64,000 nt of DNA from Gemmatimonadota bacterium (GTDB taxonomy: Bacteria > Gemmatimonadota > Gemmatimonadetes > Gemmatimonadales > GWC2-71-9): assembly GCA_016874005.1 (NCBI GenBank), contig VGVQ01000010.1:67815-131814 (forward strand), given 5' to 3'. Below are positions 8,631-48,687 of this stretch, in pieces. The notes below the pieces were generated by a model. The model worked only from the letters and a program-made list of their open reading frames with translations, was not told the DNA's origin and ran no database searches. A program made the position numbers and the translations under genes. Position 1 is the first letter of the stretch. Each line of letters begins with the position of its first letter.

Positions 8631-9608
8631 ATACTGGCCGCGGTGTTCTGCCTCGCCATCGCGGGCTACCTCGCGATCCTGGCCGGCTACCAATGGTCGC
8701 GGCGGAGCACCCTCGAGCGATTGGCTCGGGGTGGCACCGTCCAAGCCACCGACCTGGGCCCGGTGGAGTTTGCCCGGCTCGGCGCGGGGCCGCCGGTGGT
8801 CGTGCTTCCCGGCTCGTTCGGCGGCTACGATCAGGCGCTCCGGCTCGGCCGCCCTCTTGCCGACCGAGGGTTGGCGGTCATCGCGGTGTCCCGGCCGGGA
8901 TACCTCGGAACGCCGCTGGCGACCGGGCGCGCCCCCGCTGACCAGGCCGCGGCGGTGACGACTCTGCTCGATTCGTTAGGCGTCCCTCGGGCCGCCATCC
9001 TCGGCATCTCCGGCGGCGGCCCCGCCGCGCTCGAGCTGGCGGCCGCCGCGCCCGGCCGGGTCGTCGCCCTGGTGCTGATCGCCGCGCTATCCGGACCGAA
9101 GGTCCAGCCCCCCACCCCACCGGCCGCCCCCGGCTGGAGAGACCGAGTGTTCGGGGAGGATTTCTCGGCGTGGTGGCAGCTGCGACAGTACCAGCGCTCC
9201 GGCACGGCCGTGCTCGAGGCGCCGATCTTCAGCCTGGATACCAAGGCCCGGTTGGCGGCCTCACCCGAGCTGCTCGCCGAGTACTTGGAGCTGGCCTGGT
9301 ATCGTTATCCGACCAAACTGAGATGGGATGGCTACCTCAACGACCGGGAGCAGTTCGGACGGTTCGCGTTCGACGCCTTCGAACGGATCGTCGCGCCGAC
9401 CCTGGTGATTCACGGCACGGCGGATCGCAACGCCCCGATCGAACACGGCGATCGCGCCGCCAGCCGAATCGCGGGGGCTCGCTACCTCAAGATCGAGGGC
9501 GGCGATCACTACATCGGAATCGCCAGAGCTAACGAGGTCTGGCATTCGGTCACGGCCTTCCTCACGGCACCGGTCGCCCAGGCTGCCGATTCAGTCCGCG
9601 CGCCGTGA
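8601..9608 (+). CDS. alpha/beta-fold hydrolase with N-terminal membrane anchor
   Basis: GTG start at 8601 (VTGRRRWTTRILAAVFCLAIAGYLAILAGY, a TM helix). It has a GISGGG nucleophile elbow (GxSxG) and an HG...D/H C-terminal region typical of the fold. The start is uncertain; the track ORF begins at 8505 inside the fragment gene. Confidence 0.8.
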   Translation: MTGRRRWTTRILAAVFCLAIAGYLAILAGYQWSRRSTLERLARGGTVQATDLGPVEFARLGAGPPVVVLPGSFGGYDQALRLGRPLADRGLAVIAVSRPGYLGTPLATGRAPADQAAAVTTLLDSLGVPRAAILGISGGGPAALELAAAAPGRVVALVLIAALSGPKVQPPTPPAAPGWRDRVFGEDFSAWWQLRQYQRSGTAVLEAPIFSLDTKARLAASPELLAEYLELAWYRYPTKLRWDGYLNDREQFGRFAFDAFERIVAPTLVIHGTADRNAPIEHGDRAASRIAGARYLKIEGGDHYIGIARANEVWHSVTAFLTAPVAQAADSVRAP

Positions 9609-11042
9609 CAGCCGGTTCGAGGTGTAGGCCAAATCGTACCGGCCGTCCGGACGGAGCTCCAGGAAATCGATGCTCTGTCGCTGCCCCAACTGGACCGCCT
9701 CGATCGAGGTGAGCTGGGTCGGTCCGGTCTGCTCCAGGGCAAACCGTGGTTGCCCGAGACCGTAGATCTCTCCGCCGTCAAAGTCCTCGGGAATCGCCAC
9801 GAGTTCGGCCGCGAACTTCCCGCCGTCGTGCCTCACCACCAGGATCTCCGACTTGCGGCGGTACTGGCCCACCACCGACTCCGGCGACAACGGTCGCCTC
9901 GGCTCCGCCGGCAACGGCGGCGAGGCCGGAGCCGGCGCCGGAACGACCTGGCCGAGGACCCGTTGCTGCAACTCGGCGTGGAACCCGTAGCTGTCGATGG
10001 CGTTGGCGAACGAGGCGAAGGCGAGTCGTCGCTCGGGATAGACCACCAGTTGGGCGATCCCGCCATTCGAGCCGCCACTGTGGGCCAATCGGAGATCGCG
10101 ACCCTGGCCCCGAAGGCCCCAACCGATCCCCGACGCGCCACCGCCGACCGGCCTCCCGATCGTGCGGGTCGCCATGGCGGCCGCGCTCTGGTCGGTGAGA
10201 ACGCGGCGGCCGCTCGGCCCGATCCCGCGCCCGATGTGCATCGCGGCGAATGACAGTTGGTCGGCCAACGTCGTGATCAAGGTGGAACCCGCCGGCGCCG
10301 CCGATTTGGGCAGCAAGAACTTCGGTGTGGCGCGCCGCCGACCGGGGATCGCCGGATCCGGAAGGCTCCCCACCGCGGTCCGATGGAGAATCGCCTCCTC
10401 GGGGGCCGTGACCGTCCGGTCGAGGCCCAGGGGCTCGACGACCCGTTCCCGCAGGAGCCGATCGAAGCTCCTGCCGGTCAGGAACTCGAGCAGATGCCCC
10501 GCCAGGATATAGGCACCGTTGCAGTACGACGAATAGGCGCCCGGCCGATGAATCTGGCCCACGCTCATCAGAATATCGGCGTAGCGGCGGTGCGCGGCTG
10601 GCCCGTCACCCAGCTCGAGCAGGAGATCGCCCGCGTCGAACCCACTGGCATGATTGAGGAGCTGCAACACGGTGACCGAACCGCCGGCCCACCGAAAATG
10701 CGGCAAGTACGTTTCGACGGGTCGGTCGAGGGCGAGGGTGCCGTCGTCGACGAACGTCATCACCAGCGTCGAGGTCCAGACTTTGGTGATCGATCCGGTC
10801 AGAAAACCGGTATCGACCGTCATCGGCACCCCGGTATTGAGGTTGGCCACGCCAGCCGCGGCCATCTCGGTCTTGCCGTCGCGCCAGACCGCCGCGAGGG
10901 CCCCCGGCATCCGGTGTTTTCGCACGAGCCCATCGAGCAAGGTCGCCAGCGGAACCGCGGGCGGGGTCGGGCGACCGGTGACCGGCAGCCAGGGCGCCGC
11001 GAGGCCGGCAGCCAGAACCTCGCGACGAGTCCACCCCGCCAT
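9591..11042 (-). CDS. S12/class-C-type beta-lactamase-fold serine hydrolase (D-aminopeptidase / DD-peptidase-like), Tat-like signal
   Basis: ATG at 11040-11042 gives MAGWTRREVLAAGLAAP (a T-R-R-x-V-L Tat-like motif). Serine-hydrolase motifs are SITK (SxxK), YCN (YxN) and HSGG (H/K-S/T-G), plus an extra C-terminal domain. The 380 codons upstream in the 863-aa track ORF are a shadow of the neighbouring gene. Confidence 0.85.
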   Translation of the reverse strand: MAGWTRREVLAAGLAAPWLPVTGRPTPPAVPLATLLDGLVRKHRMPGALAAVWRDGKTEMAAAGVANLNTGVPMTVDTGFLTGSITKVWTSTLVMTFVDDGTLALDRPVETYLPHFRWAGGSVTVLQLLNHASGFDAGDLLLELGDGPAAHRRYADILMSVGQIHRPGAYSSYCNGAYILAGHLLEFLTGRSFDRLLRERVVEPLGLDRTVTAPEEAILHRTAVGSLPDPAIPGRRRATPKFLLPKSAAPAGSTLITTLADQLSFAAMHIGRGIGPSGRRVLTDQSAAAMATRTIGRPVGGGASGIGWGLRGQGRDLRLAHSGGSNGGIAQLVVYPERRLAFASFANAIDSYGFHAELQQRVLGQVVPAPAPASPPLPAEPRRPLSPESVVGQYRRKSEILVVRHDGGKFAAELVAIPEDFDGGEIYGLGQPRFALEQTGPTQLTSIEAVQLGQRQSIDFLELRPDGRYDLAYTSNRLSRRAD

Positions 11043-11044
11043 GG

Positions 11045-12028
11045 TCACTTCCAGTCCTTGGTGAGTCGCTCGGCGATCCGGCCGATCGTCGATTCGAGCT
11101 CGAAGAAGTCGCCGGTGCTCTGGCCGGTGAAGACCGAGACCACGGTCGGACCTCCCTGGTAGAAGAGGATCCCGACGTCGTTCCCCGCGAACGGCGGCCA
11201 GTCGCCGGTCTTGTGAGCGACCTCCACCGGGGCGCGGAACTGGAGCATCCGGGGGAGCCGGGAGCTGTAGAACTGGCGCCGCAGCATCCCGACCATCTGG
11301 TCGCTCGACTCCTTGCTCGCGAACTTGGCGTTCAGGATGTCCTCGAGCATCCGCGACATTTCCCGGGCCGTCGTCACCCCGAGCCACAGGGTCGAGTCGC
11401 CCTCGATCTTGAACCCGAGATCGGGGCCGGAGTTCGAGCCGGACGGGAAGCCTCGTTCGAACACCTGCCGATCGGTCATCGAGAGGTTGGCCGAATCGGC
11501 CGCGACCCACACGGCCTTGAAGAGATCCGCCGTCCGCCAGTTGAGCCGGGTCACCTGATAACCGAACTGGGCCAGCATCTCGTTGACCCGTTCCCGACCG
11601 ACGGTCTTGATCAGGATGTCGGTGGCGGTATTGTCGCTCGTGATGATCATCTGCTCGACCAAGTCGCGATAACTCGGGGCCAGGCCAACGTCGAAGGTTT
11701 GAATCAGGCCGCTGCCCCGGCGGAGGTCTTCGGGCCGGATCTGGTACCGGTCGGTCAGCTTGAGCCGACCAGCCTCGGCGTCGCGGAAGGCCTGGATCAT
11801 GATCGGGATCTTGATGACGCTCAGGGTGTTCATCGGCTGGTCGGCCCGAATCTCCACCGTCTTCCCCGACGGGAGGTGCTTCGCGTACATCGACGACCGG
11901 GCGGTGAGAGCTCCGAGCTGGTCGGTGAAGTCGGTGACCAGGTCCTTGGGGGTGGCGGCCGGCTGCGATGGCTTGGCACACCCGGCCAGCGATGCCGTGG
12001 CGAGGCCCGCGGCGAAGGCGAGGCGCAT
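11045..12028 (-). CDS. class-A beta-lactamase-fold serine hydrolase, lipoprotein
   Basis: ATG at 12026-12028 gives MRLAFAAGLATASLAGCAK (lipobox). Motifs present are SVIK (SxxK), SDN and KTG. Its stop lies 2 nt from the start of the S12 gene. Confidence 0.85.
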   Translation of the reverse strand: MRLAFAAGLATASLAGCAKPSQPAATPKDLVTDFTDQLGALTARSSMYAKHLPSGKTVEIRADQPMNTLSVIKIPIMIQAFRDAEAGRLKLTDRYQIRPEDLRRGSGLIQTFDVGLAPSYRDLVEQMIITSDNTATDILIKTVGRERVNEMLAQFGYQVTRLNWRTADLFKAVWVAADSANLSMTDRQVFERGFPSGSNSGPDLGFKIEGDSTLWLGVTTAREMSRMLEDILNAKFASKESSDQMVGMLRRQFYSSRLPRMLQFRAPVEVAHKTGDWPPFAGNDVGILFYQGGPTVVSVFTGQSTGDFFELESTIGRIAERLTKDWK

Positions 12029-12180
12029 GCTGTTCTCCGAAACGGATTGGGATCGAGAATCTCCACGCCAGGGAACCGAACCGCAACCGGAGGTCGTCCG
12101 CCCCCGACCGACCATCGCCAACGCCGGCTGGCGACCGGCCCGGAGCGCGTCTACCTTCCCGACTCGAACGAGAGGAGAAC

Positions 12181-12780
12181 ATGAAGAGCCACCTCCCCGC
12201 TCTGTTGCTGGCCGGTAGCCTCGCGGCAGCCCCCGCCCTGTCCGCTCAGCCAGCCCTCGGTCCCAAGGATCCTGGCCCCTATCCGGCAACCGACACCAGC
12301 CGGGTGGCTGTCGCGACCCAAGCCCCGGATTTCACTCTCGAGTCGCTCGACGGGTCCCCGGTTTCGCTGTCCTCCTTCCGCGGCTCGCACGACGTGATCC
12401 TGGTGTTCTACCGAGGCCACTGGTGACCATGGTGCGCCGGGCAGCTCGGTGAGCTGCGTGACTTGTTGACGCCGTCGGAGCGGGCCACCACCGCGATCCT
12501 TGCCATCGCCGTCGATGGCCGGAAGGAACTCCAACTGATGGTCGATCGGATCGCCGCGACGGACGGCCGCCGCCCCACCGAGATCACCTTCCTCTCGGAC
12601 CCGGGTCACCGGGTGATCGATCGCTACGGTCTCCTCAATCCCTCCGGCCGAGGTTGGCCTCATCCGACCACCTACCTGATCGACCGTTCGGGAACCGTCC
12701 GGTGGAAGTTCACCGAGGTGAACTACAAGATCCGGCCAACCAACGAGGCCATCCTCGGGGCCCTCCGCCAGATCCGCTGA
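12181..12780 (+). CDS. secreted AhpC/TSA (PRX-like, CxxC) redoxin with in-frame TGA at codon 82: candidate selenoprotein (UxxC), or otherwise a pseudogene
   Basis: Two track ORFs (ending 12426; 12463-12780) lie in the same frame. Read through, they give ...APDFTLESLDGSPVSLSSFRGSHDVILVFYRGHW[TGA]PWCAGQLGELRDLL...WPHPTTYLIDRSGTVRWKF. This family normally carries FYRG.WCP.C..QL, so the TGA falls on the first Cys of CxxC. Thioredoxin-fold conservation continues after the TGA. The signal peptide is MKSHLPALLLAGSLAAAPALSAQ. Confidence 0.65.
12441..12457 (+). promoter_or_regulatory. SECIS-like hairpin downstream of the in-frame UGA
   Basis: GCAGCTC-GGT-GAGCTGC is a perfect 7-bp stem with loop GGU (or a 6-bp stem with loop CGGUG). 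It begins 15 nt after the TGA at 12424-12426. The apical G/U and the spacing fit the general bacterial SECIS description. Confidence 0.5.
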
Positions 12781-12962
12781 CCCCCTTGCTTTCCCCCGCG
12801 ATCTCGGCATTTCCGCCGTGGCAGGCCGCCGCCTCGGCCCGGTCTGAGCTGCCAAGCTAAAGCAATACAACGAGTTAGTCGCTGCCTGACGGGGCACGAA
12901 ATTCGCCGGCTCGGGGCCAGCGGGCCACTGAATTTCCAGGGAGGGCGGGTCAGGAAACCGTC

Positions 12963-14981
12963 GTGAACCAGGCCGTGTTTTCTCTGCTCCTCGTTGCCGT
13001 CGGCGGGCTCCTCTACGCCGCGATGGCGGTAGCGTTGCTCCGCAACCGCACCCTGGTCGGTGCTCGGCTGGCGGGCTTCGCCGCGGCCACCGCCGCCGGC
13101 TACATCGTCACCAGCCAGATCGTCCCCACCGCCCGCAACCCGCTCGAACAGTACCTCGCGATCAGTGCCTTCTACACGACCGCGGCGCTGATCGTCCCCG
13201 CGGTCGTCGCGTTCGTGCTCTACGCCGGCCAATCCTGGACTCCCTCGACGGCCGGTTGGCTGGTGCTGCTGGCGATCCCGCTGGTCACCATCGCCTTGGT
13301 CTGGACCAACCCCATCCACGAGTTGATGTGGGCCGAGCCGCCGACCGGCCCGACCGGGCGTCTCCGGTTCGTCCCTCGATTCGGATGGTGGGCCACCTGG
13401 GTGTACCTCCCGGCGCAGTGGGGTGGCTTGGCGGCCGCGGTCGGGGTATTGGCCCGGTCTTGCGCGCGGCCGTTAGGCGAGCTCGGTTCCCGGTCGCGGT
13501 TGACCCGGGTCGAATCGGCCATCACCCTGCTGGCGGTACTGGCGCCCTTCCTGGTGAACGTCTACGCGGTCGCCATCGCGCCGAATCCCGCGAGCGATCA
13601 GTCCCGCACCGCGGTCACCTTGGCGATCTCGAGCCTGGTGCTCCTGGCGATCTTCCTCCGGCTCGAAATCATCGGGCTCGAACGGGTCGCCTACAGCTCG
13701 GTGGTGCGGGCCTCCAAGGACGGCTTCCTGCTGATGGACGCCCGTGACACCGTCGTGAGGCTCAACCAAGCCGCCACCAGACTGCTCACCTTCCCGGCGA
13801 CCGGGGCGCTGGGCCAGACCCTCGACGCCATCCTGGTGGGTGCACCACAGTTGCGGTCGTTGGCGATGCGCTCGGGCGAGGTGCATGAGGAAGTGGCCGT
13901 CGACGGCGATCGGCACCGGTCGGTGAGTTTCCAGCCCCTCTACTCTCGGAGCGGCGAGTATCGGGGTCGCACCCTGACGATTCGCGACATCACCGAGCGG
14001 CGCCAATCGGAGCTGGCGCTGCGGGAATCGGAGACCCTGCTTCGGAGCATCGTCGAGCACTCGCCCAACGGCGTCATCCGACTCCGACCCCTGTTCAGCG
14101 CCTCGTCGACATCGCTCGACTTCGAATGCACCTTCGCCAATCCCGCCGCCGGATACTATCTCGGCATCGATCACAAGGACCTGGTCGGGAAGGCCGTGTC
14201 GGAGACCGTGCCGGTCATGGCGCCGACGCTGCTCCCGAACCTGCTCGACGCCTTGCGCCAGGGAATCACCAATACCTTCGACATTCCGGTGCCGATCGGG
14301 GCGGGCAATCTTTGGTTCCGGGTCATCGCCAGTCCCGTTGGAGATGACCTCTCGGTCACCATCATCGACGTCACCGACGAGCGGCTCCGCCGGCTCGAAG
14401 CGGAGGGCGCCGCGAGCGAGGATCCGCTGACCGGATTGCTCAATCGGCGTGGTCTCGAGACCGCCGTCCAACGGCTCCCGGTCGATCAGAGCCGGCGCGC
14501 GATACCGGCCCATGCCCTGCTCTTCATCGACCTCGACCGGTTCAAGGAAATCAACGACCAGTTCGGACACACGGCTGGCGACCACGTCTTGCGAGAGTTT
14601 GCCCACCGCCTCCGGGCCGCCGTGCGGGAGACCGATGTGGTGGCCCGAGTCGGCGGCGACGAGTTCGTGGTCATCCTGATCAACACCGACCCCGAGGCGA
14701 GCGGGGCCTTGGCCGATCGAATTTTGGGCGAGGCCCGGCGGCCCTATCGGGTTCCGGGGGGCACCGCCAGCTGCGGCGCCAGCATCGGGATCGCCCGGTT
14801 GCCGCGCCAAGGCCAGCTGCTCACCACGGTGCTCCAGTCGGCAGATGCCGCGATGTACCACGCCAAGACCGCGGGCGGTGGGGTCCGGGTCGCTGGGTCG
14901 GCGTCGATGGCCCCGGGCGGGTCGGCGGGCCCTACCCCGGCGGTACCGCCGCGGTCGCCGGAAGCTCCAATCCATCGCTGA
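12963..14981 (+). CDS. multi-pass membrane sensor - PAS - GGDEF diguanylate cyclase
   Basis: GTG start. The N-terminal ~230 aa hold 6-7 hydrophobic helices. PAS-like segments follow (ERRQSELALRESETLLRSIVEHSPNG). The C-terminal GGDEF domain reads RVGGDEFVV, with an RETD (RxxD I-site) 5 residues upstream. Confidence 0.9.
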   Translation: MNQAVFSLLLVAVGGLLYAAMAVALLRNRTLVGARLAGFAAATAAGYIVTSQIVPTARNPLEQYLAISAFYTTAALIVPAVVAFVLYAGQSWTPSTAGWLVLLAIPLVTIALVWTNPIHELMWAEPPTGPTGRLRFVPRFGWWATWVYLPAQWGGLAAAVGVLARSCARPLGELGSRSRLTRVESAITLLAVLAPFLVNVYAVAIAPNPASDQSRTAVTLAISSLVLLAIFLRLEIIGLERVAYSSVVRASKDGFLLMDARDTVVRLNQAATRLLTFPATGALGQTLDAILVGAPQLRSLAMRSGEVHEEVAVDGDRHRSVSFQPLYSRSGEYRGRTLTIRDITERRQSELALRESETLLRSIVEHSPNGVIRLRPLFSASSTSLDFECTFANPAAGYYLGIDHKDLVGKAVSETVPVMAPTLLPNLLDALRQGITNTFDIPVPIGAGNLWFRVIASPVGDDLSVTIIDVTDERLRRLEAEGAASEDPLTGLLNRRGLETAVQRLPVDQSRRAIPAHALLFIDLDRFKEINDQFGHTAGDHVLREFAHRLRAAVRETDVVARVGGDEFVVILINTDPEASGALADRILGEARRPYRVPGGTASCGASIGIARLPRQGQLLTTVLQSADAAMYHAKTAGGGVRVAGSASMAPGGSAGPTPAVPPRSPEAPIHR

Positions 14982-16050
14982 CCAGCTCCCAGTACTCGAC
15001 CGCTTCGGGTTGTTTGGTGAACTCGAGGAACCGGCCGAAGGTCTGCAGGCCCGGGGCGCTGAAATGTCCCGGCGCGATCGCGATCTGGGCCCCGCCCCAG
15101 CGTCCGAAACCGCTCCGAATCAAGACGGCATTCGGCGCCGCGGGCAATGACCGGACGTTCCCGACGAACGCCGGGAAGACCCCCGACCGGAACAGGTACG
15201 ACTCCACGTTCGAGAGATAGAACGCCGAGACTTCCAGTCGCTGCTCCTTGAGGTAGGCCGCGATCGCCGGCATCGCGCCGCTGCCGGCCAGATCGCCAAC
15301 CACCGGAACGATTTTGTCCGCCCGCTGGAGGTCGCGAATGGTCCGCCAGCGATCTTCGCTCGACAGATAACTCGCCGCGGCGCCCTCGAGGTCGGTCTCG
15401 AGATAGAGCCGCCGGTTGGTGGGGAACATCAGCCGAGGCCCCCGACCACGGGTCGAGTATCGGACATCGAGGCCGGTGGAGGCGAACTCGTCGTGGAATC
15501 GCCGGAGGGTGGCCCGGTCGACCTCGTTCAGCGGGACGCCATAGCCCTCGACCAGGCCCATCAGCCGGCGGTGCTGCCGATCGTGCAGGGTCGAATCGGG
15601 AAGCCGGCCGTCCAGGTACTCGAGCAACGACTCGAGCGGAAGGTCGGTCCACATCACCAGGTCGGGCGGCGCCGGCCGACCATACAACAGCGACAGATAC
15701 TCCATCCGGTTACGGGCGATCCCGAACATCGCCTTGATCAGCAGGTGGAACAGCAGGTTGTCGCGCCGGATGTCGACCACCAACGCCAAGGTCGGCTTGA
15801 TCGCGGCCATGTACGAGAAACCCTGCTCGGGCCCGACGCCGAGATACACCCCTCCCGAGACGCCCAGCCGGCGCATGGCGCCCAGGACATGGAGGTACGA
15901 CGTCTCGTTGGACACCAGGTTGTCGCTCGGAAAGAAACCGCCCGGCTCGGAGAGCCGCTCCACCAACTGGGCGAACGGCGGTTTGACCTGCGCCGGGGCC
16001 GTCCCGACCGCCACCCCCGCCAACAGCGCGATGATCCGAAGCAATCTCAC
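14932..16050 (-). CDS. conserved hypothetical secreted protein
   Basis: 372-aa ORF with a GTG start and the signal peptide MRLLRIIALLAGVAVGTAPAQ. The sequence is globular-looking throughout. No family recognised with confidence. It is the last gene of a same-strand run: S9 peptidase, small ORF, symporter, this gene. Confidence 0.7.
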   Translation of the reverse strand: MRLLRIIALLAGVAVGTAPAQVKPPFAQLVERLSEPGGFFPSDNLVSNETSYLHVLGAMRRLGVSGGVYLGVGPEQGFSYMAAIKPTLALVVDIRRDNLLFHLLIKAMFGIARNRMEYLSLLYGRPAPPDLVMWTDLPLESLLEYLDGRLPDSTLHDRQHRRLMGLVEGYGVPLNEVDRATLRRFHDEFASTGLDVRYSTRGRGPRLMFPTNRRLYLETDLEGAAASYLSSEDRWRTIRDLQRADKIVPVVGDLAGSGAMPAIAAYLKEQRLEVSAFYLSNVESYLFRSGVFPAFVGNVRSLPAAPNAVLIRSGFGRWGGAQIAIAPGHFSAPGLQTFGRFLEFTKQPEAVEYWELVSDGLELPATAAVPPG

Positions 16051-16096
16051 CGCCCCTCCGTTGCTGATGCCGCTTCCTCCCGAGTCGACCGCGAGA

Positions 16097-17776
16097 CTAG
16101 CCGGTCCGTCGCGGCCGCCGGATCGCGCTGACGAGCATCCCGACGAACACTACGGTAAGCGCCCCGATCACGTTGTGCCACAGGAACGAGACCGCGGGCA
16201 TCCCGAACGACACGGCCGCGACCATCGACATCCCGGCGATCAGGCCGATCACCGCGCCGCTGGCGGTCGCGCCCCGAAGCATGGCGAGAAGGAAGACACC
16301 AAGAATCGAACCATAGAAGAACGACCCGAATCGATTCACCACCTCGATCAGGGACCCGAGGTCGGCCGCGAACGTCGCCACGACGCAGGCGAACACCCCC
16401 CAGGCGGCGGTCGCGGCCTTCGAGACGAACAGGTAATGGGAGTCGGTCCCCACCGGCCGGAGCCACCGGCGATAGAAGTCGATCACCGTCGCGGTCGAGA
16501 GCGAGTTCAGCTCGGCCGCGATGCTCGACATCGCCGCGGCCATGATCGCCGCGAGGAAGATCCCGGCCAGGCCGAGCGGCAGCTCGTCGAGCACGAACCG
16601 CGGCATGATGTAGTTGACGTCCCGGGCCGGTCCCGACGCCCCGCCCGCGAGCGCGAGTGCCTCCAGGCGGACCCCCGAGGTGGCCGCGTCCGCCGCTTGG
16701 AACTGGCCCTTGGCCGCTTCGACCTGGGCGACGTCTCCCGCGGCCCGGGCCCGGGCAATCCCCTGGGCGGCGGTGCGCCGCTCCGCCAAGGCGGCTTCAT
16801 ACCGCCGCTCCAGCGCGCTGAACGCCGCCGGATCGCCGCGGCGAGCCTCGGCGGCTTGGGCCGGGTTGTAGAGGAGGGGGGGCGCCTTGAACAGATAGAA
16901 CACGAAGACCAAGACCCCGATCAAGAGCACCAGGGCTTGAAGGGGGATCTTCCAGTAGGCGCTCATCAGCAGCGAGCTTCGGGCCTCGGCGACCGATTTG
17001 GCCGTCAGATAGCGCTGCACTTGGCTCTGATCGGTCCCGAAGTAGGAGAGCATCAGGAAGGTGCCGCCGATCACCCCCGACCAGAAGGTATAGGTCTCAT
17101 TGGGCGTGAATCGGAAGTCGAAGGTGTCGAGCCGCCCAACCGAGCCAGCGACCGCCAGCGCATCGGCGGGGCCCACCGGCAGCTTCACCAGCAACACCAC
17201 CACGACCGCGACCAGCGCGAAGACGATCAGGATCATCTGCTTGACGTCGGCCCAGGTGACGGCCTGCACTCCACCCAGCATGGTGTAGATGACCGTCGGT
17301 ATCCCGATCAGCGCCACCGACCAGATCACGTCCCACCCGAAGATCGCGGAGAACACCACCGCTGGAGCGGCGATGATCGTCCCGCACGACATCCCGCGAG
17401 AGAGCAGGAAAAGCAGACTGGTGAGCGAGCGGGTCTTGGCGTCGAACCGGCGTTCGAGGTACTCGTAGGCGGTGAACACCTTGGCCCGGTGCAGAAACGG
17501 GACCAAGGTCACCCCGAGAATCACCATCGCGAGCGGCAACCCGAAGTAAAACTGGACGAAGCGGAGGCCGTCGGTGGCTCCCTGACCGGTGGTCCCGATC
17601 ATCGTCACCGCCGAGAGCTGGGTGGCCATCACGCTCAAACCGACGGCCCACCACGGCAAGCTCCGGTTGGCGAGGAAGTACCCCTCGATCTCGGTGGTGC
17701 CCTTGGCGCGCCGGAGTCCGTCGACCACGACATACACCAGGTACCCGGCGACGATCAGCCAATTGACCGGATGCAT
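16097..17776 (-). CDS. sodium:solute symporter (SSS) family transporter
   Basis: 559-aa polytopic membrane protein. The N-terminus MHPVNWLIVAGYLVYVVVDGLRRAKGTTEIEGYFLANRSLPWW is typical of the SSS family (GYFLAxRxxxWW). Confidence 0.9.
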   Translation of the reverse strand: MHPVNWLIVAGYLVYVVVDGLRRAKGTTEIEGYFLANRSLPWWAVGLSVMATQLSAVTMIGTTGQGATDGLRFVQFYFGLPLAMVILGVTLVPFLHRAKVFTAYEYLERRFDAKTRSLTSLLFLLSRGMSCGTIIAAPAVVFSAIFGWDVIWSVALIGIPTVIYTMLGGVQAVTWADVKQMILIVFALVAVVVVLLVKLPVGPADALAVAGSVGRLDTFDFRFTPNETYTFWSGVIGGTFLMLSYFGTDQSQVQRYLTAKSVAEARSSLLMSAYWKIPLQALVLLIGVLVFVFYLFKAPPLLYNPAQAAEARRGDPAAFSALERRYEAALAERRTAAQGIARARAAGDVAQVEAAKGQFQAADAATSGVRLEALALAGGASGPARDVNYIMPRFVLDELPLGLAGIFLAAIMAAAMSSIAAELNSLSTATVIDFYRRWLRPVGTDSHYLFVSKAATAAWGVFACVVATFAADLGSLIEVVNRFGSFFYGSILGVFLLAMLRGATASGAVIGLIAGMSMVAAVSFGMPAVSFLWHNVIGALTVVFVGMLVSAIRRPRRTG

Positions 17777-17915: not shown

Positions 17916-20522
17916 CTACTCGCTGATCGGCCGGGCTTTGGCGTCCGGCTTGCCCGCGTTCTTGACGTACTTATCCAACCAGGCGCTCCATCGGCCCCAG
18001 AGATCGAGCAGGGTTTCCTTGGTCGCCGGGCCGTGGTCCTCGAACGGATAGAGATACATCGAGGCGGTCTTCCCGAGCCCGTTGAGTGCCTGGAAGAGGC
18101 GAGGCGAATTGATCGGGTCGGTACCCACGTTCTGATCGGCGAGGCCGTGATACAGCAAGAGCGCGCCGGTGAGGTTGTTGGCGTGCAGCAGCGGCGACAT
18201 CGACAAGTAGGTGTCCTTGGCCTCCCACAAATCACGGCGCTCGGTCTGGAAGGCGAGCGGCGTCAGGGTGCGGTTGTAATTGCCGTCGCCCGCGATGCCC
18301 GCCTTGAAGAACGGGGTGTGCACCATCGCGTTGACCGTGGAGAACGCGCCGTAGCTGTGGCCGCCGATTCCCATCCGGGTCCGATCGACGAGGCCGCGGC
18401 GGTCCACTTCGTCGATCACCGCCGCCAGGTTGTTCCGAAGATCGTGCTCGTAGTTGTTGTTCCAGCGGCCCTCCGGGCCGACGATCGGGGCGTCGGGCTC
18501 CACCACCGCGTACCCGGCTCGGGCCAGGAACTGCATCGACCGGGCGTTGAACGACGGGAAGGCATTCTTGTCGTGGGTCTTGGCACCGCGGTCGTATTCT
18601 TCCTGGCCCGCGAACTCCCGGGGATAGAACCAGAACATCGCCGGGAGCCGGGTACCGGCCTGGTGACCGGGCGGCAAGGTCACGTTGACCTTGAACTTGA
18701 AGCCATCGGGCCGCTCGACCAGAAAGCTCTCGCGGGGCGCGGCGGTCAGATCAGGAGTGGGGTCGACGTTCTGGGTGAGTTGGACCCGTCGCCCCCCCTC
18801 GTGCAGGAACGCCTGCGGAGCCGCCGTCGGCGATTCCCGAGAGACCACCAGGCTCGGCGTGGCGAGATCGCGCACCGCCAACAGTCGCTCCGAGACCCCC
18901 TCGTTGCTGCTCTCGTAGAGCCGAGTCCGCACCGTTCCCCGAATCGAGGTCTTGTCGATGAACCGCTTGGGACCGACCGCCAGTGGGTCCGCCGCGTACT
19001 CGGTTCCGTAGAAGTAGACATGGTTGCCGTCCGCTGTCGTGGCGACCACTTGCCCGGAACCACTCGACCCCCCGAAGCCCCCGAACCCGCCAAACGGGTT
19101 CGGCTGCGGCACGGTTCCGTCCGCGAGCAGCAGGGTACCGGGATGGGCTCGGGGATCGTCGGATCGATATCGGACCAGCGTCAGCTTCTTGGCCGGTTCG
19201 GCCAGCACGACGGCAAACTCGTGCTGCTGTTGCCCCACCCGTTCGCCCGCGAAGATCGTCTTGTGGTCCGGGGCGTACCGGACGTTGCTGATCCGGCCCT
19301 CGTTTTCGAACAGGATCGATCGGCTGACGCTGTCGAACGGCGCCCGCCACTGATAGAGCCGGTCCTTGCGCCGACTGCGCCCGGCGGGATCGTCGTTCGG
19401 CGGCGCGCTGTCGGCGCGGGGCTCCTGCTCGAGGTAACTCAATCCCTGGCCGTCCCGGCGCCAGGCAACTTCCCTCTTGCCCCTGACCGGGCCGTCGCCG
19501 CCGCCCACCCCGGGAGCCGTCGCCACCCGCGCGGTGTCCGCCCCGAGGTTGAGCGGCTCGTCGCCGATCCTCGCGAGCATCCGGCCCGAGAGATCCCAAA
19601 TCTCGTCCATCGTTCCGAAGTTGCTCACCGGGACGATATACGAGAACGGCTTCACCATCCGCCCCACTCGCAGGTAGCGGCCGTCGGGCGAGAGGTCGGC
19701 CCGCTCGATCATGGCAGGCTGCCCGATCTTCGCCACCGTCTTGGTCTGGACGTCGACCAAGACCAGCTGCCCGGTGGTATGCCACTCCAACAGCGCCTGG
19801 TCATATGGCGTCGCCAGCAGGCTCGCGAAGTTGCGGAGCCGGTTCTTGTCGGTCTCCTCGGCAAGTTTGACCTGGGGGCCGGTCGGGACGGCCGGGCGCT
19901 CTGGCATCGCAGACCGGCCCTCGGGTACCAAGACCGCCAGCAGCGAGCGGCTGTCGTCGCTCCACTCGAAACGAGTGGCCAAGGTCGCCAGCACGGGCTG
20001 GCGGGTGACCTGGCGAGCCCGCCCGGTGAGATCGCTGACCCAGAGGTGGGTAGCGTCGGGGGTATGACCGAAGAAGGCCACGCTCTTGCCATCGGGGCTC
20101 CAGGTCGCCTCCGAAATCCGGAGTCCGACCGGAATGACCACCGAGACCTTGCCGCCATCGGTCGCCGAGATGAGCTCGAGTCCCGCGTTGTTTCGGATCG
20201 TCAGCGCTCGGCTTCGGTTCGCTCGGTAGTCGACGAACAGTCCGCCCAGCTCGTGGAACGGCTTGGAGAAGGTGACCATCGACACCGGGCCGTCGCCGAC
20301 CTCGCGGAGGAAGTGCGACCGGTTCGAGTTGATCTGTGTCGGTACCACCAGGTTATGGCGCGGAGCCAGGACCGCGTCGGCGATGGAGGCCGGCGGCGTG
20401 ACGAACGTCTCCGCGCGGATGACCTGATCGACCGGCGACACCGGCGGCGCTTGGTTGGTCTGGGCGCGGCCGGATCCGGCCGCGAACATCAGTGCCAGGA
20501 GCGACACGAGGGGACGGTGCAT
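17916..20522 (-). CDS. S9-family serine peptidase (prolyl oligopeptidase/dipeptidyl peptidase-like) with N-terminal beta-propeller
   Basis: 868 aa with the signal MHRPLVSLLALMFAAGSGRAQ. PD40-like repeats are present (WSPDGKSVAF, LSPDGRYL). The C-terminal alpha/beta domain has GGHSYGA (GxSxG) and later D/H residues. Confidence 0.9.
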   Translation of the reverse strand: MHRPLVSLLALMFAAGSGRAQTNQAPPVSPVDQVIRAETFVTPPASIADAVLAPRHNLVVPTQINSNRSHFLREVGDGPVSMVTFSKPFHELGGLFVDYRANRSRALTIRNNAGLELISATDGGKVSVVIPVGLRISEATWSPDGKSVAFFGHTPDATHLWVSDLTGRARQVTRQPVLATLATRFEWSDDSRSLLAVLVPEGRSAMPERPAVPTGPQVKLAEETDKNRLRNFASLLATPYDQALLEWHTTGQLVLVDVQTKTVAKIGQPAMIERADLSPDGRYLRVGRMVKPFSYIVPVSNFGTMDEIWDLSGRMLARIGDEPLNLGADTARVATAPGVGGGDGPVRGKREVAWRRDGQGLSYLEQEPRADSAPPNDDPAGRSRRKDRLYQWRAPFDSVSRSILFENEGRISNVRYAPDHKTIFAGERVGQQQHEFAVVLAEPAKKLTLVRYRSDDPRAHPGTLLLADGTVPQPNPFGGFGGFGGSSGSGQVVATTADGNHVYFYGTEYAADPLAVGPKRFIDKTSIRGTVRTRLYESSNEGVSERLLAVRDLATPSLVVSRESPTAAPQAFLHEGGRRVQLTQNVDPTPDLTAAPRESFLVERPDGFKFKVNVTLPPGHQAGTRLPAMFWFYPREFAGQEEYDRGAKTHDKNAFPSFNARSMQFLARAGYAVVEPDAPIVGPEGRWNNNYEHDLRNNLAAVIDEVDRRGLVDRTRMGIGGHSYGAFSTVNAMVHTPFFKAGIAGDGNYNRTLTPLAFQTERRDLWEAKDTYLSMSPLLHANNLTGALLLYHGLADQNVGTDPINSPRLFQALNGLGKTASMYLYPFEDHGPATKETLLDLWGRWSAWLDKYVKNAGKPDAKARPISE

Positions 20523-20609
20523 GTGGCGGTGCCTCCGAAGACCGACGAATCCACAGGGCTCTGGCCCAAATTGACCGCCCCAAGCGGCCGATCACAAGGG
20601 TGGCGGCGG

Positions 20610-20637
20610 TTGACGCCGGCCCGGGCGGTGCTACCAT
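20610..20637 (+). promoter_or_regulatory. possible sigma70-type promoter for the downstream S9 peptidase gene
   Basis: TTGACG (20610-20615), a 16-nt spacer, then TACCAT (20632-20637). A GGAGA Shine-Dalgarno sequence sits about 8 nt before ATG 20666. This is a pattern match only. Confidence 0.3.
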
Positions 20638-20665
20638 CTCCGGGTCACCAACGGAGACCGTAGGC

Positions 20666-22720
20666 ATGCCCCGCTTCGACCTCACGGCCTTGGCCTTGAT
20701 CCTGGCCGCCAGCACGGGCCCGCTTGCAGCGCAGCCGAGCCGGCTCACCCCTGCCGATCTGTTCCAGCTCGAGGTCGGCGCCGATCCTCAGATCTCCCCG
20801 GACGGCCAGTGGGTGGTCTACGTCCGCCAGTGGTCGGATGTCTTGACCGATCGGCGTTACTCGAACCTCTGGCTCGCCAAGGCCGATGGGTCGGAGCACC
20901 GGCCCCTTACCTCGGGCAAGTTCACCGAATCGACGCCCCGGTGGTCACCGGATGGCCGGCGACTCGCCTATGTCTCCAACAAAGATGGCGCGGCCCAGAT
21001 CTACGCCCGTTGGATGGACACCGGCACCACCCACGCGATCACCAACCTCACCGAGCCGCCGAGCAGCCTCGAGTGGGCCCCGGACGGCAGCCGAATCGCG
21101 TTCTTCAAGCGGGTCCCGGAGCCACCCCTGGTGGTGGGGCAGTTGCTCACTCCACCGCCCGGCGGGACTTGGGCCCCGGTGCCCAAGTACACCGACAAGC
21201 TGGTGTTTCGGTACGACCAGCTGGGCGAGCTCCCGCCCGGCTACGTCCACGCCTTCGTGGTCTCGGCCGACGGCGGGACCGCCTCCCAGGTCACCTCGGG
21301 CAACTACCACCACGGCGGACTGGTCACCGGAGGCGGCAGCCTGGCCTGGTCCGCGGATGGAACCGAGTTGATCATGCCAGCTCGACGGGGCGAGAACCCG
21401 GAGTGGAACGCCCGGGAAACCGAGTTGTGGAGCTTCTCGGTCGCGGCCGGGGCGGCCAAGCAGTTGTCGCGACGATTCGGGCCCGACCAGTCGCCGGCCG
21501 TCTCGCCCGATGGGCGGCAGATCGCCTACGTGGGCTACGACGATCGGAAGCAAGGATACCAGAACACTCTGCTCTACCTGATGAACCGCGACGGGAGCGG
21601 CGCCCGGCCGGTTTCCGGCAAACTGGATCGATCGGTTGGCAACCCGACCTGGTCGGCGGATGGCCGCGGGATCTACGTCCAATACGACGACCAGGGGAAC
21701 ACCAAGGTGGCGTTGTTCCAAATGGACGGCACCTGGAAAGACCAGGTCCGGAATCTCGGGGGTGGCAGCTCGGCCTACGGCGGCGGGAGCTACTCGGTGG
21801 CCAGGGATGGATCGATCGCCTACACCCTGAGCACCCCCAAAGTTCCCTCGGAGATTGCCGTGCTCCGGTCGGCCGCGGCTCAGCCGCGGGTGCTCACCGC
21901 CCTCAACGCCGACGTGCTCGCCAGCCGCACGTTAGGCGAGGTCGAGGAACTCTGGTGGCCTTCCTCGAAGGACCAGCGGAGGATCCATGGCTGGATCATC
22001 AAGCCGCCGGGGTTCGACCCGTCCCGGAAGTACCCCCTCATCCTCGAGATCCACGGGGGACCGTTCGCCAACTACGGCGACCGGTTCGACGACGAGAAAC
22101 AGCTGATGGCGGCGGCCGGCTACCTGGTGCTCTACACCAACCCGCGCGGCAGCACCAGCTACGGCGAGGAGTTCGGCAATCTGATCCACCATGCCTACCC
22201 CGGCGACGACTTCCACGACCTCAATTCGGGGGTCGACGCCGTCATCGCCAAGGGCTATGTCGACGAGCGGAATCTCTTCGTCACGGGCGGCAGCGGCGGC
22301 GGGGTTCTCACCGCCTGGATGATCGGGAACACCCCCCGATTCAAGGCCGCGCTGGCGTTCTATCCGGTGATCAATTGGGAGAGCTTCTCGCTGACGGCCG
22401 ACATGGCGCCGTCGTCGGTGAACAACTGGTTCCCAGGCTTTCCCTGGGATCACCAGGAGAACTACGACAAGCGCTCGCTGCTCTCGGTCGTCAAGAACGT
22501 CAAGACGCCGACCCTGGTGATGACCGGGGAAGAGGATTGGCGGACCCCGATGTCCGAGTCGGAGCAGTATTACAAAGCCCTGAAGATGCGTGGCGTGGAC
22601 GCGGTGCTGGTTCGCGTCCCGGAGGAGCCCCACGGGATTCGGCGGCGCCCCTCTCACGCGGCCTCCAAGTTGACGACCCTCTACGGATGGTTCGAGAAAT
22701 ACCGCAGTCAGGTGCCCTGA
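20666..22720 (+). CDS. S9-family serine peptidase (acylaminoacyl-peptidase / DPP-like) with TolB-like propeller
   Basis: ATG at 20666 gives MPRFDLTALALILAASTGPLAAQ. PD40-type repeats are present (ISPDGQWVVY, WSPDGRRLAY, WAPDGSRIAF, VSPDGRQIAY, WSADGRGIY). The catalytic motif is GGSGGG. Confidence 0.9.
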   Translation: MPRFDLTALALILAASTGPLAAQPSRLTPADLFQLEVGADPQISPDGQWVVYVRQWSDVLTDRRYSNLWLAKADGSEHRPLTSGKFTESTPRWSPDGRRLAYVSNKDGAAQIYARWMDTGTTHAITNLTEPPSSLEWAPDGSRIAFFKRVPEPPLVVGQLLTPPPGGTWAPVPKYTDKLVFRYDQLGELPPGYVHAFVVSADGGTASQVTSGNYHHGGLVTGGGSLAWSADGTELIMPARRGENPEWNARETELWSFSVAAGAAKQLSRRFGPDQSPAVSPDGRQIAYVGYDDRKQGYQNTLLYLMNRDGSGARPVSGKLDRSVGNPTWSADGRGIYVQYDDQGNTKVALFQMDGTWKDQVRNLGGGSSAYGGGSYSVARDGSIAYTLSTPKVPSEIAVLRSAAAQPRVLTALNADVLASRTLGEVEELWWPSSKDQRRIHGWIIKPPGFDPSRKYPLILEIHGGPFANYGDRFDDEKQLMAAAGYLVLYTNPRGSTSYGEEFGNLIHHAYPGDDFHDLNSGVDAVIAKGYVDERNLFVTGGSGGGVLTAWMIGNTPRFKAALAFYPVINWESFSLTADMAPSSVNNWFPGFPWDHQENYDKRSLLSVVKNVKTPTLVMTGEEDWRTPMSESEQYYKALKMRGVDAVLVRVPEEPHGIRRRPSHAASKLTTLYGWFEKYRSQVP

Positions 22721-22857: not shown

Positions 22858-24645
22858 TCACCTCCCACCTCTCGAGGATCCCAATGCGGACCACGTCTCA
22901 CCCGTCTTGTGCGGCGGCTTTCGCCTGTCTGGCGCTTTTCGGTGCCGGTACGGCCGCCTCGGCGCAGCCGGCGGCCAATACCCGTTGTTGTTCCTGGCGC
23001 TTGCCAAGGGTACCGGGTCGCCGAGAAATGACAGGCGTTCCGGATCGAATCGCTGCGCGAGCACCCGTTCGGAGCCGCTGGAGACGTAGACCATCAGGTC
23101 GGACGCGACGATGTGCGCCGCGATCAGTCCCGGGAAAACTCGAGAGAGCCCAGGGCGCTCGGTGTGGCCCAGATATGCGATTGCCCCCGATTCCTCGCCG
23201 CTTTCGCCAGTGATCAGAAAACGGGTCCCGTCGGGAAAGAACGTCGGGATCCAGGAGACGCCCGCCGACACGGTATCCCCCACCCGGCTGGCACAGCCAG
23301 GGCGATCCGCCCGGCCGATCGCGAGCCCGCTCACGAAGGTGATCACGATGTCACCCCGGCTACCCCATGCGGCCCCCTTGGCGAGCGGCGCCTCGCAGAA
23401 CGGCCGGGGCGCCGCCTGGTCGAGGCCACGGAGCCACACCTTGCCTAACGCGAGGTAGCCCACGGTCCGGCCGTCGGGCGACCAGAAGGGCGCCTCGGCG
23501 CCGGCGGTGCCGGCCACAGAGTCGGCGACGGGCTTGGCCAAGTCGCGGACCCAGAGCTGGCGATCGCCGGAGGCGGAGGTGGAGATGAAGGCGAATCGCC
23601 GGCCGTCGGGAGAGAGCGCCCCGAAGGAATTCTGGAGGGCGAACTGGCGGCCTGGTGGCGGGAGGAGCGTGGCGAAGGTCGGAGTGCTCGTCGTCTCGGG
23701 GGACCGGAGCCAGCCCCACGCCGCGGCGGCAGCCGCCGCAAGCGCGACAAGAGCCAACAGAGCCTCGGTCCGTCGGCCCCGACTCGGCACTTGCGCCGGC
23801 TCGGTCGCCGCTTTCGCGTCGAGCGCGTCGAGCAACCGCGCCGCCGACTGGTAGCGGTCGGCCGGCAGCTTCTCGAGTGCGGTCCGGACTACCTGATCGA
23901 GCCAGGCGGGCACAGTGTCTCGAACCCGACTCGGCGGGACGGCGCGCTCGGTCACCACCTTGGCGACGATGGCCTGCGGCGTGGGCCCGGTGAACGGCGG
24001 CTCGCCGGTGAGCATCTCGTGGAGCACACACCCCACGGCGTAGACATCGGTCCGGGCGTCGAGGGTCCGCTCGCCCATCGCCTGTTCGGGACTCATGTAA
24101 TGCGGGGTGCCGAGCGACATTCCGGTCTCGGTCATCCGATTGCCGCCGTCGGAGCGGCTGGCCGCGAGCGCGATCCCGAAATCCGCCACCAGCGCGTGAG
24201 CGCCGTGGAGGAGAATGTTTTCGGGTTTGATGTCGCGATGAATGACACCGTGCCCGTGGGCGTAGTCGAGCGCGCCGGCGACCTCCCGCGCGAATCGGAC
24301 CGCGTCGTCGATCGGGAGTTGTTTCTCCCGGTTGAGCCGGTCGCGAAGCGATTCGCCCTCGACGAACGGCATCACGTAGAACACGGTGCCATCGGTGGCG
24401 CCGGAGTCGAACAACGGAAGAATGTGAGGGTGCTGGAGGTTGGCGGTGGTGCGGATCTCGATCAGGAACCGTTCCGCGCCGAGGACGGCGGCCAGCTCGG
24501 GATGGAGCACCTTGATCGCGACGTCGCGGTCGTGTCGGAGGTCGCGGGCAAGGTAGACGGTGGCCATCCCCCCGGCGCCCAACTGGCGCACGACCTGATA
24601 ACGATCCTTGACGGCCGCGGCGAAAGCGGCGGCATCGATCGGCAT
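22858..24645 (-). CDS. Ser/Thr protein kinase - TM helix - PD40/TolB-like propeller; C-terminus apparently truncated
   Basis: Kinase motifs are GAGGMATVY, VAIKVL, HRDIKPEN, DFG and SPE. The TM helix is ALLALVALAAAAAAAWGWL. PD40-like repeats include SPDGRRFAF, SPDGRTVGY and FPDGTRFL. After ...ERLSFLGDPVPLA (codon at 23002-23004) the last 48 codons are R/P-rich and not protein-like. Confidence 0.85.
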   Translation of the reverse strand: MPIDAAAFAAAVKDRYQVVRQLGAGGMATVYLARDLRHDRDVAIKVLHPELAAVLGAERFLIEIRTTANLQHPHILPLFDSGATDGTVFYVMPFVEGESLRDRLNREKQLPIDDAVRFAREVAGALDYAHGHGVIHRDIKPENILLHGAHALVADFGIALAASRSDGGNRMTETGMSLGTPHYMSPEQAMGERTLDARTDVYAVGCVLHEMLTGEPPFTGPTPQAIVAKVVTERAVPPSRVRDTVPAWLDQVVRTALEKLPADRYQSAARLLDALDAKAATEPAQVPSRGRRTEALLALVALAAAAAAAWGWLRSPETTSTPTFATLLPPPGRQFALQNSFGALSPDGRRFAFISTSASGDRQLWVRDLAKPVADSVAGTAGAEAPFWSPDGRTVGYLALGKVWLRGLDQAAPRPFCEAPLAKGAAWGSRGDIVITFVSGLAIGRADRPGCASRVGDTVSAGVSWIPTFFPDGTRFLITGESGEESGAIAYLGHTERPGLSRVFPGLIAAHIVASDLMVYVSSGSERVLAQRFDPERLSFLGDPVPLASARNNNGYWPPAAPRRPYRHRKAPDRRKPPHKTGETWSALGSSRGGR

Positions 24646-25598: not shown

Positions 25599-25629
25599 GG
25601 CCTGGACCAGACCCGGAGTGTGGGCCGCA

Positions 25630-26328
25630 ATGGTTGCCGGAGGCGCGGGCGCCTCGGCACCGGACCTGGCCGGCCAACCGGTCGGCGAAAACGTCTTCCT
25701 GGCCCGTCGGGCCGCGATGGTCCGAGTGATCGCCGCACAGGGCGTCCGGGACCCCGCCGTGCTCGCCGCGATGGGCATGGTCCCCCGCCACGAGTTCGTC
25801 CGCCCGGACGACCTGGAACACGCCTACGAGGATCGCCCCCTGCCGATCGGACAGGGTCAGACCATCTCCCAGCCCTTCATCGTCGGGTACATGACGGAGG
25901 CCATCCGGCCCCGCCAAAAGATGCGGGTGCTCGAGGTCGGCACCGGTTCAGGATATCAAGCCGCCATCCTCGGTCAGCTTGGCTGTGAGGTGTACTCGGT
26001 GGAGATCGTCCCCGAGCTGGCCCGAACGGCGAGCACCCGACTCGAGCGGCTCGGGTATCGCACGGTCCGGGTCCGCCATGGCGACGGCTACGCGGGCTGG
26101 CCCGAGATGGCCCCGTTCGATGCCATCATCGTCACCGCGGCGCCGCGGGTTGTTCCGCCGGCCCTGATCGCGCAGCTGGCCCCGAGCGGCCGAATGATCG
26201 TGCCGGTCGGCGAAGCAGCCGGCCGACAGCAGCTCAGGCTGATCGAGAAAGACTCGGCGGGTAAGGTCGCGGTTCGAAGGCTCCTCCCGGTGCGCTTCGT
26301 GCCCATGGTCCCCGGCACCGGCCGATAA
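25630..26328 (+). CDS. pcm: protein-L-isoaspartate(D-aspartate) O-methyltransferase
   Basis: ...RRAAMVRVIAAQGVRDPAVLAAMGMVPRHEFV...GQTISQPFIVGYM...VLEVGTGSGYQAAIL... is the classic Pcm pattern with the SAM motif. The start is uncertain: ATG 25630 is preferred and ATG 25597 is also in frame. Confidence 0.9.
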   Translation: MVAGGAGASAPDLAGQPVGENVFLARRAAMVRVIAAQGVRDPAVLAAMGMVPRHEFVRPDDLEHAYEDRPLPIGQGQTISQPFIVGYMTEAIRPRQKMRVLEVGTGSGYQAAILGQLGCEVYSVEIVPELARTASTRLERLGYRTVRVRHGDGYAGWPEMAPFDAIIVTAAPRVVPPALIAQLAPSGRMIVPVGEAAGRQQLRLIEKDSAGKVAVRRLLPVRFVPMVPGTGR

Positions 26329-26398
26329 ACGATTCGGTGCCCGCGCGGCGCCGGCCTCCGTTAGGACGACTGTTGGCCCGAGCACGGAACCTACCGGT

Positions 26399-26422: not shown

Positions 26423-26467
26423 GTGGAGCGCCAATATCGTGTCATCGCTACCCTCGAGTCAGCCGCC

Positions 26468-48672: not shown

Positions 48673-48687
48673 CGTTCCGGCAATATA

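Follow-up and report, generated by a model that had tools for sequence, protein, structure and literature searches.

The window analyzed here, a 64-kb stretch of contig VGVQ01000010.1 from a Gemmatimonadota bacterium, contains at 12181-12780 a gene for a thioredoxin-fold protein whose reading frame is interrupted by one TGA codon. We conclude that this is very probably a single intact gene in which the UGA encodes selenocysteine (Sec), and that its product belongs to the known peroxiredoxin-like (Prx-like) UxxC kind of selenoprotein. This verdict follows the standard criteria of the field: a Sec/Cys pair, orthologs with UGA at the same codon, conserved coding sequence downstream, and a conserved selenocysteine insertion sequence (SECIS) hairpin. 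The initial annotation of this DNA, made from the sequence alone, had described two same-frame open reading frames (ORFs) parted only by the TGA at 12424-12426. Inspection of the frame confirmed a single internal stop in 199 codons, and every coordinate given in that annotation proved correct. ORF calling splits the gene into 12181-12426 and 12463-12780, the latter with a TTG start. Translated across the internal stop, the protein reads MKSHLPALLLAGSLAAAPALSAQ...VILVFYRGHW-(TGA)-PWCAGQLGELRDLL...WPHPTTYLIDRSGTVRWKFTEVNYKIRPTNEAILGALRQIR, followed by the terminal stop codon. When Cys was put in place of the internal stop, the Pfam model AhpC-TSA matched with 90.2 bits against a cut-off of 26 (Table 1), and Redoxin matched amino acids (aa) 44-183 (E=1.2e-16). 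As both matches extend over the TGA, one domain spans the stop. Homologs are 47-74% identical to the window protein over its whole length. A Shine-Dalgarno-like stretch precedes the start codon (Table 1); the interval 11900-13100 yielded no sigma-70-like promoter.

The codon was then compared in 154 related loci from genomes and metagenomes, which together with the window gave 155 sequences. Codon 82 is TGA in 145 of these and TGC or TGT in the other 10; the distinct segments analyzed comprised 135 TGA and 9 Cys forms. The initial annotation had placed the UGA at the first Cys of a CxxC motif. An alignment check showed that, in the Cys forms, the residue opposite the UGA is indeed the first Cys of FYRGHWCPYC, which constitutes a Sec/Cys pair. 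The stop at this codon is strictly TGA, and TAA or TAG never occurs in the related sequences. A scan of species-representative genomes yielded 415 relatives, and among the best 80 loci, which were examined, codon 82 is TGA in 76 and TGC in four. By their labels, these 80 loci come from Gemmatimonadota (61, including Longimicrobiales), Acidobacteriota/Blastocatellia (9), Binatia (4), Rokubacteria (1), and Delta- or Proteobacteria (3), with two unclassified; all four TGC forms are from Gemmatimonadaceae or Gemmatimonas. A metagenome scan seeded with Cys forms only still returned mostly TGA forms.

A protein search gave some 29 homologs of full length (~200 aa) and some 90 fragments (~110 aa) that start just past the CxxC motif. 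When the contigs of three fragment homologs were inspected, W-TGA-x-x-C was present at the same codon and the hairpin at the same place in all three. It had been anticipated that such genes would be annotated as fragments, and the databases do hold ~110-aa C-terminal fragments, or entries with Trp at the UGA. Eight JGI 'full-length' homologs (P0005, P0010, P0011, P0014, P0016, P0023, P0026, and P0028) read HWWPYC, apparently because the gene caller translated the TGA of the Sec codon as Trp. Another homolog, P0029, reads HWRPYC, with Arg at this codon, and the NCBI-sourced entries P0051, P0090, P0103, P0114, and P0118 consist of the C-terminal ~110 aa only.

Hairpin downstream of the UGA codon and selection on it

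A perfect hairpin 15 nt downstream of the UGA had been noted in the initial annotation, and it lies at exactly that position: its first base is the 15th nt past the TGA, and 21 nt separate the UGA from the apical loop. With the U of the UGA numbered 0, the 5' arm occupies 17-23, the loop 24-26, and the 3' arm 27-33. In the bacterial SECIS (bSECIS) model, the apical loop has 3-9 nt, the upper stem 4-16 bp, and the distance from UGA to loop is 16-37 nt (PMC13188914 Fig. 2); G occurs in the first two loop positions in an N1-G[G/U]N-N2 pattern, and the minimum free energy (MFE) is <= -7.5 kcal/mol (PMC13188914). The window hairpin has a 3-nt GGU loop, a 7-bp stem, and a spacing of 21 nt, and the MFE of the 17-nt element is -10.1 kcal/mol, all within these limits; it is the most stable hairpin of the set.

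The hairpin is kept in the TGA forms. All 135 distinct TGA sequences form the five core pairs, CAGCU/AGCUG, and each of them has a G[G/U]N apical loop. In L005 and L006, a double synonymous change (CAA...UUG) converts G-C to A-U with the pair kept. The outer pair is U-A in 99 of the 135 sequences and G-C in 11, including the window, while the inner pair is C-G in 91, U-A in 8, and G-C in 5; in several of the inner-pair variants, a change from E to K or Q is matched by the Leu codon. Pairing was observed in 94.4% of cells, compared with 30-46% when the 3' partners were slid by 1-3 columns, and none of 500 shuffles reached the observed covariation score or double-change count. RNAalifold retained the 5-bp core and found no conserved lower helix in the TGA homolog alignment. 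The resulting family SECIS consensus is UCAGCUN-GKN-NAGCUGA. Among the Cys forms, by contrast, at most 5 of the 7 pairs are present in any of the nine, the GKN loop is present in two of nine, and the median hairpin MFE is -1.9 kcal/mol, versus -8.6 kcal/mol in the TGA forms. The combination of TGA and an in-register hairpin across relatives is far beyond chance. Like the E. coli fdhF-type SECIS and the bSECISearch consensus, the element is a stem-loop within the coding region after the UGA, with a small loop that carries G and then G/U. It differs from the fdhF type in that the conserved part covers only 5-7 bp, without a conserved lower helix or a bulged U.

Codon usage within the hairpin departs from that of the same genes elsewhere. 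Leu at +10 is encoded by CUG in 133 of 135 sequences, against 41% of Leu codons elsewhere, and Gln at +6 by CAG in 133 of 135, against 75% of Gln codons. Codon +9 is NAG in all 135, although GAA and AAA make up 28-29% of Glu and Lys codons in the background. Regardless of the amino acid, the codon preceding the stem has U at its third position in 101 of 135 sequences (background, 11.6%), and Arg after the stem is AGA or AGG in 64 of 69 cases, as opposed to 10.6% of Arg codons. For the 12 codons that follow the UGA, synonymous divergence (dS) is 0.64, compared with 1.13-1.20 in the flanks. The codon choice and the roughly halved dS point to selection on the RNA at the hairpin.

Selection on the protein was assessed from the ratio of nonsynonymous to synonymous divergence (dN/dS), calculated pairwise by the Nei-Gojobori method in about 4000 pairs. 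The ratio is 0.22 for the 38 codons preceding the UGA and 0.33 for the stretch between codon +13 and the stop. Purifying selection thus acts on the C-terminal part as protein, and the frame is kept, in agreement with the downstream conservation of the thioredoxin fold that had been described from the window sequence.

The use of UGA in the rest of the window was also determined. TGA terminates about half of the coding-like ORFs, and all Pfam-annotated genes are uninterrupted. In a scan of the 64 kb for in-frame TGA codons between coding-like segments, only 12424-12426 was credible. UGA thus serves as an ordinary stop here with a single in-frame case, and therefore reassignment of the code is excluded. 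Two other in-frame TGA candidates in the window were rejected because they lie antisense to real genes.

Selenocysteine and alternative readings of the codon

Several results weigh against Sec at codon 82. ARAGORN found no tRNA-Sec in the window or in 170 related loci, Pfam scans of the main window ORFs detected no SelA, SelB, or SelD, and tblastn with the E. coli SelA, SelB, and SelD proteins gave no match in the window plus 766 kb of related loci. Such absence of sel genes says nothing about the genomes; the window and loci cover a small fraction of them, and absence is expected by chance. As for the hairpin, no Rfam family matched it, either in the whole window at the gathering threshold or in 12380-12520 at E<=10. 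The predicted fold of the 55-nt region is no more stable than that of shuffled sequence (z=0.14), single-sequence folding being uninformative in such GC-rich DNA. A perfect 7-bp hairpin at +11 to +23 follows 15 of the 1363 TGA trinucleotides (~1%) in this window of 67% GC, and the hairpin in the window sequence taken by itself is weak evidence. Moreover, some of the pairing in the stem would arise from the Q-L...[E/K]-L peptide and the GC-rich codon usage in any case, CAG and CUG being reverse complements of each other. What raises the hairpin above the level forced by the peptide is the codon bias, the covariation, and the Cys-form controls, and only these. The Cys form L097 keeps the QLGEL peptide and reads CAA CUC GGU GAG CUU, with the pairing lost. 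The idea that the hairpin is a mere by-product of QLGEL was rejected on the grounds of codon usage, compensatory changes, reduced dS, and loss in Cys forms.

A lone TGA in a single assembly may always be erroneous, and gene callers do report two ORFs here. A pseudogene or a consensus error, in which TGC or TGT was changed to TGA so that the redoxin is truncated and only a remnant lies downstream, is nevertheless barely conceivable: the same TGA occurs in 145 of 155 sequences from independent assemblies and several phyla, the downstream part is under purifying selection, and only the TGA forms have the stable hairpin. The comparative data have effectively refuted this explanation already. The called ORF at 12463-12780 with its TTG start, together with similar fragments called in many relatives, might also be taken for a true second polypeptide, in which case a split redoxin would be made from an exported 81-aa N-terminal part and a C-terminal part of ~105 aa initiated at an internal TTG or GTG. 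We give hardly any weight to this arrangement, as the called starts of the C-terminal fragments vary among homologs and fall inside or past the hairpin, the C-terminal fragment has no signal peptide while the N-terminal fragment would be exported, the active-site motif would be cut after its first residue, and the strict use of TGA, never TAA or TAG, would be left unexplained.

It is also conceivable that the UGA is decoded without selenium, either by near-cognate read-through to Trp or Cys, which the hairpin might stimulate, or through a reassignment of UGA in the lineage. The HWWPYC entries with Trp at this codon would agree with such decoding, as would the lack of visible Sec machinery in the window and in the flanks of related loci. 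However, reassignment is excluded by the ordinary use of UGA as a stop in about half of the window genes and by the absence of in-frame UGAs from every other gene. The codon falls exactly on the catalytic Cys of CxxC, for which Cys homologs exist, and both the loop sequence and the spacing of the hairpin fit a SECIS of the SelB type. Furthermore, Trp at the CxxC nucleophile would inactivate the enzyme, yet the family is under purifying selection. Decoding without selenium thus seems improbable to us, and we retain Sec82 as the preferred reading. Under this reading, SelB, which is predicted to bind the message, would bring selenocysteine to the A site at the UGA, and translation would run on to the stop at 12778-12780.

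Fold, active site, and predicted export

The closest solved structure by sequence is AhpE of Mycobacterium tuberculosis (phmmer E=1.6e-11). An AlphaFold2 model of the Cys homolog P0002, which is 59% identical to the window protein and stands in for it here, has a mean pLDDT of 80.9. It superposed on AhpE with a TM score of 0.88 and a root-mean-square deviation of 1.9 A; other Prx and BCP proteins and ResA came next. In the alignment to AhpE, U82 occupies the position of Prx Thr42, C85 that of the peroxidatic Cys45, and P162 that of the catalytic Arg116, whose identity is confirmed by 4xih, the R116A mutant of AhpE. The earlier proposal that the stop replaces a redox-active Cys was upheld and refined in this way: Sec stands at the Thr position of Prx and C85 at that of the peroxidatic Cys. 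Only Cys85 thus remains of the Prx catalytic triad (the Thr of PxxxTxxC, the peroxidatic Cys, and Arg), Thr being replaced by Sec82 and Arg by Pro162. Because of these two replacements, the active site is predicted to be thioredoxin-like, with a selenol/thiol pair and a Pro loop on a Prx fold, rather than a true peroxidase site.

The window protein and AhpE (Rv2238c; PDB codes 1xxu, 1xvw, and 4x1u), a 1-Cys peroxiredoxin, have the fold and the C85/Cys45 position in common. They differ in that AhpE has Thr42 and Arg116, is cytoplasmic, and contains no Sec, whereas the window protein has Sec82 and Pro162 in a CxxC-type dithiol/selenolthiol site. With the periplasmic oxidoreductases of the TlpA/ResA/CcmG type, the window protein shares an exported thioredoxin fold and a W-C-x-x-C motif, and ResA was among the Foldseek matches of the P0002 model (TMt 0.81-0.83). 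The likeness is at the level of the fold only; the window protein is nearer in fold to Prx/BCP, and its first Cys is replaced by Sec. No NCBIfam model reached its cut-off with the window protein. The scores and cut-offs were 42.7/170 for ResA, 21.5/230 for TlpA, and 42.2/140 for BCP; the selenoprotein models were likewise below cut-off, at 41/120 for the SelL-related NF040769, 22.1/270 for PrxU (NF040737), and 27.1/300 for WAxxUGC (NF041054).

The signal peptide read in the initial annotation has counterparts throughout the family: a comparable hydrophobic N-terminal segment was detected in 96% of 129 distinct homolog N-termini by a heuristic (not SignalP), and some homologs carry a lipobox Cys instead of a plain signal peptide. 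This recurrence of a signal-peptide-like segment suggests that the family is exported.

On this basis, 12181-12780 would encode one 199-residue, exported, Prx-fold but thioredoxin-like thiol:disulfide oxidoreductase with the site Sec82-Pro-Trp-Cys85. The signal peptide would direct passage across the inner membrane. The genes most similar to this one are from metagenome-assembled genomes of Gemmatimonadota; the organism is therefore probably a diderm of the Gemmatimonadota type, in which the mature domain would reside in the periplasm. Sec82 would be the attacking nucleophile and Cys85 the resolving residue, with a selenenylsulfide formed between them. Reduction of a disulfide or sulfenate as substrate appears more likely than classical peroxidase activity, because the Prx Thr and Arg are absent, the motif is of the CxxC type, and the His-Pro pair is invariant.

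Known selenoproteins and genomic context

UxxC Prx-like selenoproteins have been known since 2004-2005. As the initial annotation had stated, they form an established class, known variously as the Prx-like thiol:disulfide oxidoreductase selenoproteins with PF00578 and UxxC, whose function is predicted only (PMC13188914 Table 1), the 'Prx-like 1' selenoprotein of GOS (PMC2398784), and the 'Prx-like protein' family of the Sargasso Sea, which has UXXC instead of TXXU and Sec and Cys forms at 22 to 4 (PMC1088965). The described proteins (reference WP_010940744.1) and the window protein have in common the AhpC/TSA domain, UxxC where Prx has TxxC, a SECIS directly after the UGA, and a dominance of Sec forms (22:4 in the Sargasso Sea, 145:10 here); this likeness was judged by the published descriptions of domain and motif. 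Whereas those papers concern Deltaproteobacteria or marine samples, the sequences described here are predominantly from metagenome-assembled genomes (MAGs) of Gemmatimonadota, Acidobacteriota, and Binatia. The window subfamily differs further from the described proteins in its signal peptide or lipobox and in lying below every NCBIfam cut-off.

We tentatively propose, as a possibility somewhat short of even, that these sequences constitute a separate subfamily of exported Prx-fold redoxins, uncurated and Sec-dominant (~93% UGA), with one near-invariant minimal SECIS across Gemmatimonadota, Acidobacteriota/Blastocatellia, Binatia, and Rokubacteria. If so, Sec decoding would be widespread in these largely aerobic soil lineages, and in public databases the subfamily would systematically appear in pieces or with the UGA translated as Trp. 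No paper describing Sec use in Gemmatimonadota was found. What is known of bacterial selenoproteins in general does not change, since the UxxC Prx-like kind is already described; the added interest lies in a large Sec-dominant subfamily from soil phyla with little documented Sec use, for which there is no curated model and mis-annotation is systematic. In the window, a single selenoprotein coding sequence should replace the ORFs 12181-12426 and 12463-12780, and the same correction applies to well over 100 database entries that are C-terminal fragments or mistranslated with Trp. Working Sec insertion would then be expected in the window organism, as in many uncultured members of the Gemmatimonadota, Acidobacteriota, and Binatia. 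A selenoenzyme in the cell envelope of soil bacteria would bear on their selenium demand and on the handling of oxidative and disulfide stress, and a very short, strongly conserved SECIS lends itself to testing, on a natural element, how little SelB needs for recognition.

Table 1. Coordinates of the predicted selenoprotein gene, its sequence signals, and its divergent neighbors in the window.
Feature	Position	Strand	Remarks
Predicted selenoprotein coding sequence, including Sec82	12181..12780	+	199 codons; single internal TGA; terminal TGA at 12778-12780
Shine-Dalgarno-like purine-rich stretch GAGAGGAGAA	12170..12179	+	Directly 5' of the ATG at 12181; read from sequence
Predicted signal peptide, aa 1-22, MKSHLPALLLAGSLAAAPALSA then Q	12181..12246	+	Positive n-region, hydrophobic core, A-x-A-like end
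AhpC/TSA (PF00578) thioredoxin-fold domain, aa 44-175	12310..12705	+	Pfam E=1.3e-25 (Cys put for the stop)
In-frame UGA, predicted to be read as selenocysteine (Sec82)	12424..12426	+	Cys at the aligned position in Cys-form homologs
Predicted redox motif U82-P-W-C85 (UxxC)	12424..12435	+	W81 and C85 invariant in the homolog alignment
Candidate SECIS hairpin, 7-bp stem GCAGCUC/GAGCUGC, apical loop GGU at 12448-12450	12441..12457	+	Conserved in TGA forms
His161-Pro162, HP motif facing UxxC	12661..12666	+	Both invariant in the homolog alignment
Beta-lactamase-family gene, divergent from the selenoprotein gene	9594-11033	-	PF00144, serine hydrolase / class C-like, E=8e-58
Beta-lactamase-family gene, divergent from the selenoprotein gene	11048-12031	-	PF13354, class A-like, E=5e-54

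The gene stands alone in the window, with the two divergent beta-lactamase-family genes on one side (Table 1) and a 7TM-PAS-GGDEF gene (12963-14981) downstream. No neighborhood is conserved: no neighbor is common to more than 8 of 81 loci, except for a TlpA-like gene in one subclade. There, in a subclade that includes a Rokubacteria MAG, a TlpA/ResA-like WCPPC gene (motif FINFWATWCPPC) lies directly 3' of the Sec-redoxin gene, namely in L031:3863 and in the metagenome loci L099-L152, for example L101:2389 and L113:2337. The WCPPC protein is a candidate redox partner of the Sec-redoxin in these relatives; its gene does not adjoin the window gene. The Cys-form homologs nearest to the Sec clade, P0002 and P0006, are located in apparent operons (L089:602-2223 and L090:572-2262) in the order thioredoxin (116 aa), Prx-like redoxin, second redoxin. 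The TlpA-like neighbor and the thioredoxin-redoxin-redoxin operons together hint at a periplasmic thiol redox relay.

The rest of the window contains housekeeping genes (DnaK, trigger factor, ClpP, ClpX, GlmS, GlmM, and GlnRS), as well as many peptidases and signaling genes. Exported peptidases are plentiful, with M1 at 64-2811, S9 at 17916-20591 and 20423-22720, and S15 at 26243-28378. On the minus strand, 22861-25823 holds tandem Ser/Thr protein kinase ORFs whose stop-to-stop frames overlap (22858-24735 and 24462-25823). ARAGORN placed a tRNA-Thr(CGU) at 46765-46841 (-), inside a coding-like ORF of 709 codons at 46651-48780 (-) that has a sub-threshold match to DUF5686; at the gathering threshold, Rfam reported only a tRNA-Leu at 38463 and not this tRNA-Thr. 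Either the 3' end of the ORF is over-extended or the tRNA-Thr call is doubtful. In two further genes, the only matches are to domains of unknown function: DUF7790 at 14935-16149 (-; E=1.3e-27), and DUF5916 with a CBM9-like domain at 58855-61599 (+; E=1.1e-62).

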